Shown: piece by piece, positions 42,111-42,430 of the stretch
Position numbering within the stretch: position 1 is the first letter of the stretch
Layout: each line of letters begins with the position of its first letter
Origin: Escherichia phage EcNP1
Strand: one strand, 5' to 3'
Sequence record: NC_054910.1
Length of the DNA stretch: 64,000 bases
Position numbers and translations under genes: made by a program
The notes under the pieces: generated by a model
Database searches by the model: none
What the model was told of the DNA's origin: nothing
Seen by the model: the letters and a program-made list of their open reading frames with translations, nothing else

Positions 42111-42149
42111 TGAATGTATAGTATCAAAACCCTTGGAGGAAGTAAACAC
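42111..42149 (-). promoter_or_regulatory. T4-type early promoter
   Basis: Plus aatgtatagtatca...agtaaac (42141-42147). Confidence 0.65.
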
Positions 42150-42430
42150 TATTTTTCTGACGCGCCTGAAATATATTTTTCAAGACGTTGTTTCATTAGC
42201 GAGCCGTTCTTAGCGATTTCTTCCGGTTTATCGCACATACGCAACAAGGCTTCAAGCTTAACGATATCGCCGGTACGTTCAAATTTGCGAGTATCTATCT
42301 TACTAGCAAGTTCAGAAATACGTGCTAATAGACTTTCGGCTTCAACCAAAGCTGCACCTAACTTAGTTGCAAATGTGTCAGTAGCTTCGTTAAGAATAGA
42401 TTCTGATAAAAATTCACTATATGTTTTCAT
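42149..42430 (-). CDS. Internal-protein-like protein with CTS ([10 protein letters not shown])
   Basis: Start at MKTYSEF (ATG 42428-42430, RBS GGAAAG, ATGA overlap with e stop); 93 aa. Confidence 0.72.

Follow-up and report, generated by a model that had tools for sequence, protein, structure and literature searches.

The internal proteins of bacteriophage T4 all reach the core by means of an N-terminal capsid targeting sequence (CTS) and are then trimmed by gp21, and multiple cuts are known in T4 propeptides (PMC5694885). Mutagenesis of T4 IPIII, as reviewed in PMC9026906, identified the first 10 residues as enough for packaging, foreign proteins included, residues 4 and 7 as the main ones for targeting (Mullaney & Black 1996), and residues 8 (Leu/Ile) and 10 (Glu) as needed for processing. 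Ip1, Ip2, and Ip3 of T4 each inhibit a distinct GmrSD Type IV restriction enzyme without cross-protection (PMC12373910), and 'at least 10' Ips known by their N-terminal signal are cited by Silas et al. 2025 (PMC12373910). A functional model is provided by T4 IPI*, the inhibitor of GmrSD CT596, which is a small, injected protein of 76 aa released by gp21 from a CTS precursor. IPII and IPIII are non-essential injected proteins, both of them GmrSD inhibitors, and their genes lie in T4 in the order nudE, e, ipIII, ipII, denV. Both T4 ip loci are reportedly highly polymorphic among T-even phages, with about ten different ip ORFs that have a conserved leader, as Repoila et al. are said to have described in 1994 (EMBO J 13:4181); we take these two polymorphic loci to be e-denV and 57B-tRNA.

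The window analyzed here, a stretch of 64,000 nucleotides from Escherichia phage EcNP1, contains an ip5-like internal head protein gene of 93 codons at the first of these positions, on the minus strand (42149..42430; start ATG 42430-42428, stop 42151-42149), assigned from its open-reading frame and from PHROG 3499. A preliminary description of this DNA had drawn attention to the ORF between denV and e and to the capsid-targeting pattern at its N-terminus without giving the strand, and both the ORF and the pattern are present. Pfam and PHROG searches confirmed the two flanking genes as denV, encoding endonuclease V (41677..42090 (-); PHROG 1183, E 1.6e-59; Pfam PF03013 Pyr_excise), and e, encoding a T4-type lysozyme of 162 aa (42427..42915 (-); Pfam PF00959 Phage_lysozyme) that is matched in 676 phage records. 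The upstream neighbor of e is nudE/e.1 (42952..43407 (-)), and beyond denV are an ipII-like gene of 84 aa (41410..41664 (-); PHROG 2667 'internal head protein', E 6.9e-19) and an ipIII orthologue of 191 aa that begins MKTYKEFIAE|A (40773..41348 (-); PHROG 5341, E 1.3e-115), giving the minus-strand order nudE/e.1, e, ip5-like, denV, ipII-like, ipIII.

The preliminary description had also known of no T4 Ip gene at this position, which holds for the gene itself, as the T4 genome contains no orthologue of the ORF, but not for the position, since ipIII and ipII lie between e and denV in T4. The locus is therefore not unusual, and, judged by gene order, the window carries a different, rearranged cassette in an ip locus already known to vary, with the ip5-like gene between e and denV. 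The ipII-like and ipIII genes of the window are downstream of denV, whereas T4 ipII and ipIII are upstream of it. T4 IPII and IPIII have the same locus, leader type, and predicted gp21 processing as the window protein, for which late expression like theirs is predicted, while their mature domains are unrelated to it and fall in different PHROGs. Two separate observations concern the neighboring genes. The ipII-like gene (41410..41670 (-)) reads ATT AAA ATG TAT where T4 ipII reads ATG AAA ACA TAT, and because ATT replaces ATG its protein would start MYQEFIAE, two residues short, unless translation begins at the ATT; in the shorter form, the Tyr and Phe used for targeting stand at positions 2 and 5. 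The protein is acidic (pI 5.3). In a comparison of window positions 42415..42445 with stretches of T4 (3490..3520) and VR20 (2995..3020), the last ~ 18 nt of T4 e (GTATAAAAATCTATAAAG) aligned with the start of VR20 ip5 (ATATGAAAACCTATAATG), ATA replacing ATG. This similarity may be the relic of an ip5-type start in T4 or may reflect a constraint on the C-terminus of the e product (AYKNL / AYENL).

Homology searches against T-even internal proteins, proposed as a check in the preliminary description, placed the protein in the Ip5 family. Its residues 1-87 matched PHROG 3499 'internal head protein' (E 8.6e-47), and the protein had no other match in PHROGs and matched no family in Pfam or NCBIfam. 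The 88% identical VR20 ip5 is its orthologue, T2 ip5 is 48.8% identical (tblastn, E 5e-15), and the T2-type representative P0007 was matched at E 5.9e-12 (phmmer). The homology extends to the mature domain, where T2 and ime09 Ip5 (PHROG 3499) are 48-52% identical to the window protein and have in common with it the blocks KLGxAL.EAE.L..RI.EL and EIAKNGS.MK.RLE; like the window protein, they are small and helical with a leader of MKT[YF]xEF followed by (L/I)xE. Two populations of records were separated by tblastn, ~ 237 of the window type and ~ 258 that are 44-52% identical, the latter annotated Ip5 in T2 (LC348380) and others, and ime09 carries both paralogues, the e-linked type and Ip5. A word-indexed homology search returned 5 near-identical clusters. 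RB69ORF127c shares a 90% identity cluster with the window protein. Across 1.84 billion representatives, an exhaustive phmmer search brought up no more than four or five sequence types, so that the Ip5 family is small and limited to T4-like phages. Weak partial phmmer matches to three long proteins (~ 1000 aa; E 1.6e-5 to 6.5e-4) were taken for coiled-coil noise.

The gene is a sub-type distinct from the Ip5 of T2. In T2, ip5 occupies the other ip locus, in the order 57B, ip5, ip7, tRNA genes, while the window gene is not found downstream of 57B behind the cassette of the ipI locus; because it adjoins e and is without that cassette, it represents a paralogous sub-type at the second locus. The leaders also differ in type, that of the window gene being like ipII/ipIII (MKTYxEFLxE) and that of T2/ime09 Ip5 like ipI (MKTFKEF..TITE). 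The order e, ip5, denV of the window recurs in VR20, where ip5 and e overlap by 14 nt compared to 4 nt in the window and the genes beyond denV are ip10, one for an internal head protein that has no name, and ip7. Over 24 kb, the window shows 99.9% identity to Escherichia phage vB_EcoM_Nami (species Tequatrovirus ecnp1), whose record already labels the ORF 'putative internal head protein', and the exact protein is present in NCBI/UniProt as 'internal head protein' (QXV73440.1, YP_010068035.1). The gene is thus not new; it is an Ip5-family member that was already known and annotated, in an ip locus known to vary.

Codons 1-10 of the gene (42401..42430 (-)) correspond to the CTS and end in a first predicted prohead-protease site, L-S-E|S, and codons 11-15, SILNE (42386..42400 (-)), end in a second, L-N-E|A. 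The sequence MKTYSEF has the targeting residues Tyr4 and Phe7, the processing residues Leu8 and Glu10 follow (L8-S9-E10|S), and the second (L/I)xE, L13-N14-E15, is followed by Ala, as is usual at P1′ in IPI, IPII, and IPIII. Of the window's 804 candidate starts with ATG, four had the pattern MK[TS][YF]x[EDQ]F, compared to none in 100 shuffles, and these four are the ip5-like ORF, ipIII, ipI, and a 187-aa ORF; the match of the leader is no chance event. In the VR20 orthologue the leader reads MKTYNEFLTV TTLNE|A, with Val as residue 10 and LNE|A as the sole site left. Because VR20 has Val at this position the canonical Glu10 site is not conserved, and the cleavage site conserved among the orthologues, as read from the aligned leaders, is probably Glu15 rather than Glu10. 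A tandem LNE..LNE|A leader is also present in an unrelated CTS protein of ime09, MKSYAQFLNEAVLNEAS. A cut after Glu10 is predicted to leave a product of 83 aa, 9.2 kDa, and pI 6.3, and a cut after Glu15 one of 78 aa, 8.6 kDa, and pI 8.1. Either mature protein is near-neutral (14 K+R and 13-14 D+E); the precursors of IpI and IpIII in the window are basic, with pI 8.9 and 9.6. All types of the family keep MKT[YF]x[ED]F and then (L/I)xE within residues 10-15, while in the alignment their mature parts differ by 40-56% (down to 44% identity). Retention of the leader and cleavage site alongside diverged mature parts is the pattern expected of a functional leader. The sequence-level tests all agree with the earlier reading of the ORF as a gene for a CTS-bearing internal protein, which they support, and we consider it likely that the product is an internal head protein of the Ip5 family that is loaded through its CTS, trimmed by gp21, and injected, and that by analogy may block a host defense protein.

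The window contains five or six CTS-type genes in total, in three loci, and two of these, apart from the gene under study, deserve description. The gene at 47651..48123 (-), with a late-promoter box at 48163-48170 nearby, is broken by a 1-nt deletion, reading ATG AAA TCA TAT GCT CAA TTT TAA (MKSYAQF*), where its ime09 counterpart has a run of five Ts and reads MKSYAQFLNEAVLNEAS... for 157 aa; what remains in the window is a 147-aa ORF from a GTG, with no leader. The break would be either that of a true pseudogene or the result of T-run slippage or a sequencing error. The 187-aa ORF at 46962..47525 (-) has a perfect leader, MKTYAEFLTE|A, and is a paralogue of the frameshifted gene; both fall in PHROG 2280, labeled 'unknown function', and ime09 labels the counterpart of the 187-aa ORF only as RB69ORF149c. 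It is likely that this ORF represents a family of internal proteins not yet recognized as such, at a third locus that lies between e.8 and the tRNA genes.

From a six-sequence alignment, AlphaFold2 predicted a small all-helical bundle for the ip5-like protein (mean pLDDT 80.5; helices 18-44, 47-53, 56-65, and 69-91) with low confidence in the leader region. Foldseek searches with this model found nothing below E = 5 in the PDB and a single match in BFVD, the VR26 'putative internal head protein' of the same family, and the sole PDB sequences reached by a profile search were those of designed helical proteins, at a non-significant E >= 0.014. With no informative relatives, assignment of a function from the fold was rejected despite the pLDDT of 80.5. 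No similarity to Ip1, Ip2, or Ip3 was found by sequence (PHROGs) or by fold (Foldseek), and the protein is thus not a detectable homologue of a characterized GmrSD inhibitor. T4 IPI* is without sequence similarity to the window protein and differs from it in fold, having two beta sheets flanked by helices (PMC3012670) where the window protein is predicted to be all-helical. No report of virion presence, cleavage, or injection of this protein or of any Ip5 was found in the literature searched. When ip4-10 were assayed against the tested GmrSD variants, a test for which inclusion of the e-linked sub-type is not stated, no reproducible inhibition was obtained (Silas et al. 2025, PMC12373910 Supplementary Fig. 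9). Because the GmrSD family is very diverse, this result leaves room for a Type IV target. By analogy with the T4 proteins, our best guess is that the ip5-like product, once injected, inhibits one particular defense protein of the host.

The same findings bear on a different role, in which the protein is packaged and processed but has no part in anti-defense, serving inside the head as a filler or organizer of the core or as an aid to DNA packing or ejection. Such a role would fit the lack of reproducible GmrSD inhibition by ip4-10 and the simple predicted helical bundle with no informative relative, as well as the fact that internal proteins are numerous and embedded in the packaged DNA (PMC3012670). 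It is nevertheless unlikely: as a near-neutral protein the mature product would be a poor DNA counter-ion, an essential part in assembly is excluded because T4 and roughly two thirds of the phages that carry e do without the gene, and all three T4 Ips of known function are defense inhibitors.

Expression of the gene appears to be tied to that of e. The preliminary description had the start of the ORF coupled to the lysozyme stop, and the ATGA overlap on which such coupling would rest was read directly from the sequence at 42427..42430 (-), where the minus strand runs GCG TAT ATA TGA AAA CAT and the stop codon TGA of e (42429-42427) and the ATG of the ORF (42430-42428) overlap by 4 nt, three bases being common to TGA and ATG. 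The same overlap of the two genes is present in Nami. Two exact T4 late-promoter boxes, TATAAATA, lie upstream of e at 42942-42949 and 42929-42936 (-) and are the only exact late boxes able to serve the pair, with no exact TATAAATA for a late promoter of the gene's own in 42431-42915. A late promoter inside e was rejected, as the only candidates there are two boxes with one mismatch each, TATGAATA, which overlaps the start codon of e, and TATAAAGA at 42857-42864; the distance from either of them to the ORF downstream exceeds 400 nt. The leader of e folds into a hairpin (42910..42952 (-); -16.2 kcal/mol, z -4.72, with 0/200 shuffles as stable) that would bury the e Shine-Dalgarno in transcripts initiated upstream. 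In T4, this hairpin reportedly limits translation of e to late transcripts that start inside it, a result that McPheeters et al. are said to have obtained in 1986. Because the ip5-like gene is coupled to e, its product would also be late, at the time of prohead assembly, and we infer late expression of the gene from this coupling.

Neither type of promoter/RBS cassette found ahead of other ip genes is present ahead of the ip5-like ORF. One, an identical 40-nt upstream cassette (..gatactatta..ttaggaaaataaaATG), precedes the window ipI, T2 ip5, T2 ip7, and ime09 Ip5, and the second precedes T4 ipII and T4 ipIII (..atatttaaaggaaacatATG) and is common to ime09 Ip4 (..tttaaaggaaacatATG). The window ipI orthologue is at 50767..51054 (-), downstream of 57B, and the identity of its cassette to those of T2 ip5, T2 ip7, and ime09 Ip5 fits cassette-mediated swapping of ip genes at the 57B locus. 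For the ip5-like gene, the ATGA overlap and the two late boxes upstream of e are the only evident signals. Public annotation already covers the gene as well as the name of its family and the class to which it is presumed to belong; absent from it are the probable reliance of the gene on coupling to e without an ip cassette and the conserved cleavage site, probably Glu15.

The overlap with e and the lack of a promoter/RBS cassette of its own would also suit a late cytoplasmic protein that is tied to the lysozyme or to lysis and is left unpackaged, its MKTY leader being an inherited relic. We regard this as improbable, since conservation within the family, including the Ip5 paralogues at the 57B/ipI locus far from e, is highest in the leader, and since the protein has no membrane segment and no similarity to lysis proteins. 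Moreover, the 10-residue CTS of T4 alone packages foreign proteins (PMC9026906).

Downstream of the gene, between it and denV, an intergenic hairpin TTCCTCCAAG...CTTGGAGGAA (42094..42141 (-); -23.2 kcal/mol, z -3.45) has a 10-bp stem that pairs the denV Shine-Dalgarno, and an early-type promoter, GTTTAC-18 nt-TACTAT, overlaps its 5′ arm and loop. Transcripts from the early promoter would lack the 5′ arm, leaving the denV RBS free, whereas, on this predicted structure, those reading through from e and the ip5-like gene would be translationally silent for denV. The T4 denV hairpin is built in the same way, its sequence showing compensatory changes (TCTCCTGTAG / CTACAGGAGA). The hairpin mirrors the known e-gene switch with the timing opposite.

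Conservation of the ORF was examined by megablast with the 282-nt query, which found the gene at >=80% identity in 237 phage records, almost all of them Tequatrovirus. Among the matches listed, every one in an annotated record extends into the lysozyme gene as well, and the frame is unbroken in the orthologues among the matches listed (237 records, >=80% coverage). Given that e is found in 676 phage records, roughly one third of those bearing it carry the ip5-like gene, a variable distribution as expected for an accessory gene. Comparison with the orthologue from VR20 (Gaprivervirus) gave 27 synonymous and 14 non-synonymous differences (dS 0.63, dN 0.068, dN/dS 0.107). The ORF is a real gene under purifying selection, as shown by its conservation in 237 records and the low dN/dS together with the confident AlphaFold2 model. 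An alternative upstream TTG start at 42445 (98 aa) appears in the list of ORFs and is used in one GenBank record; this start was rejected because the homologues all start at MKT and the leader would be buried. That the ORF is a non-functional remnant or an annotation artefact, as might be supposed from its small size, the lack of a Pfam family, and its absence from T4, is very improbable and effectively refuted by the conservation pattern, with the substitution ratio well below one at a dS of 0.63, the frame intact in the orthologues among the matches listed, and the model confident.

For the preferred reading, an injected Ip5-family protein, a course of events can be proposed in which the first three steps draw on strong sequence analogy with the T4 internal proteins. 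Transcription from the two late promoters ahead of e would cover both e and the ip5-like gene, and ribosomes that reach the stop of e would go on to translate the latter, so that the protein would be made late, as proheads assemble. Its leader, via Tyr4 and Phe7, would then bind it into the gp22 scaffolding core, and cleavage by gp21 behind Glu10 (LSE|S), Glu15 (LNE|A), or both would release into the head interior an all-helical, near-neutral protein of 78-83 aa (~ 8.6-9.2 kDa). The fourth step is a guess by analogy: the protein would be injected with the DNA and act immediately in the new host, most probably by binding and blocking one defense protein, in the way that T4 Ip1, Ip2, and Ip3 each block one GmrSD-type enzyme. 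Weighing against the preferred reading are the missing promoter/RBS cassette, the Val at position 10 in VR20, the near-neutral charge of the mature protein, its lack of similarity to Ip1, Ip2, and Ip3, and the outcome of the assays with ip4-10. More tentatively, the e-linked sub-type might be an injected inhibitor of a defense outside the tested GmrSD variants, belonging to another class of Type IV enzymes or to a system of a different type. The ime09 paralogues (~ 49% identical) would on that proposal have diverged toward different target variants, and the coupling to e would show that an ip gene can also be installed in a second, 'fixed' manner.

Internal proteins meet the host ahead of all other phage proteins. 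Because all three T4 Ips disarm Type IV enzymes, each uncharacterized ip gene is a candidate anti-defense factor, and since the ip5-like gene is common, being carried by about one third of the phages that bear e, its target would be useful for the prediction of host range and for the design of phage therapy cocktails.
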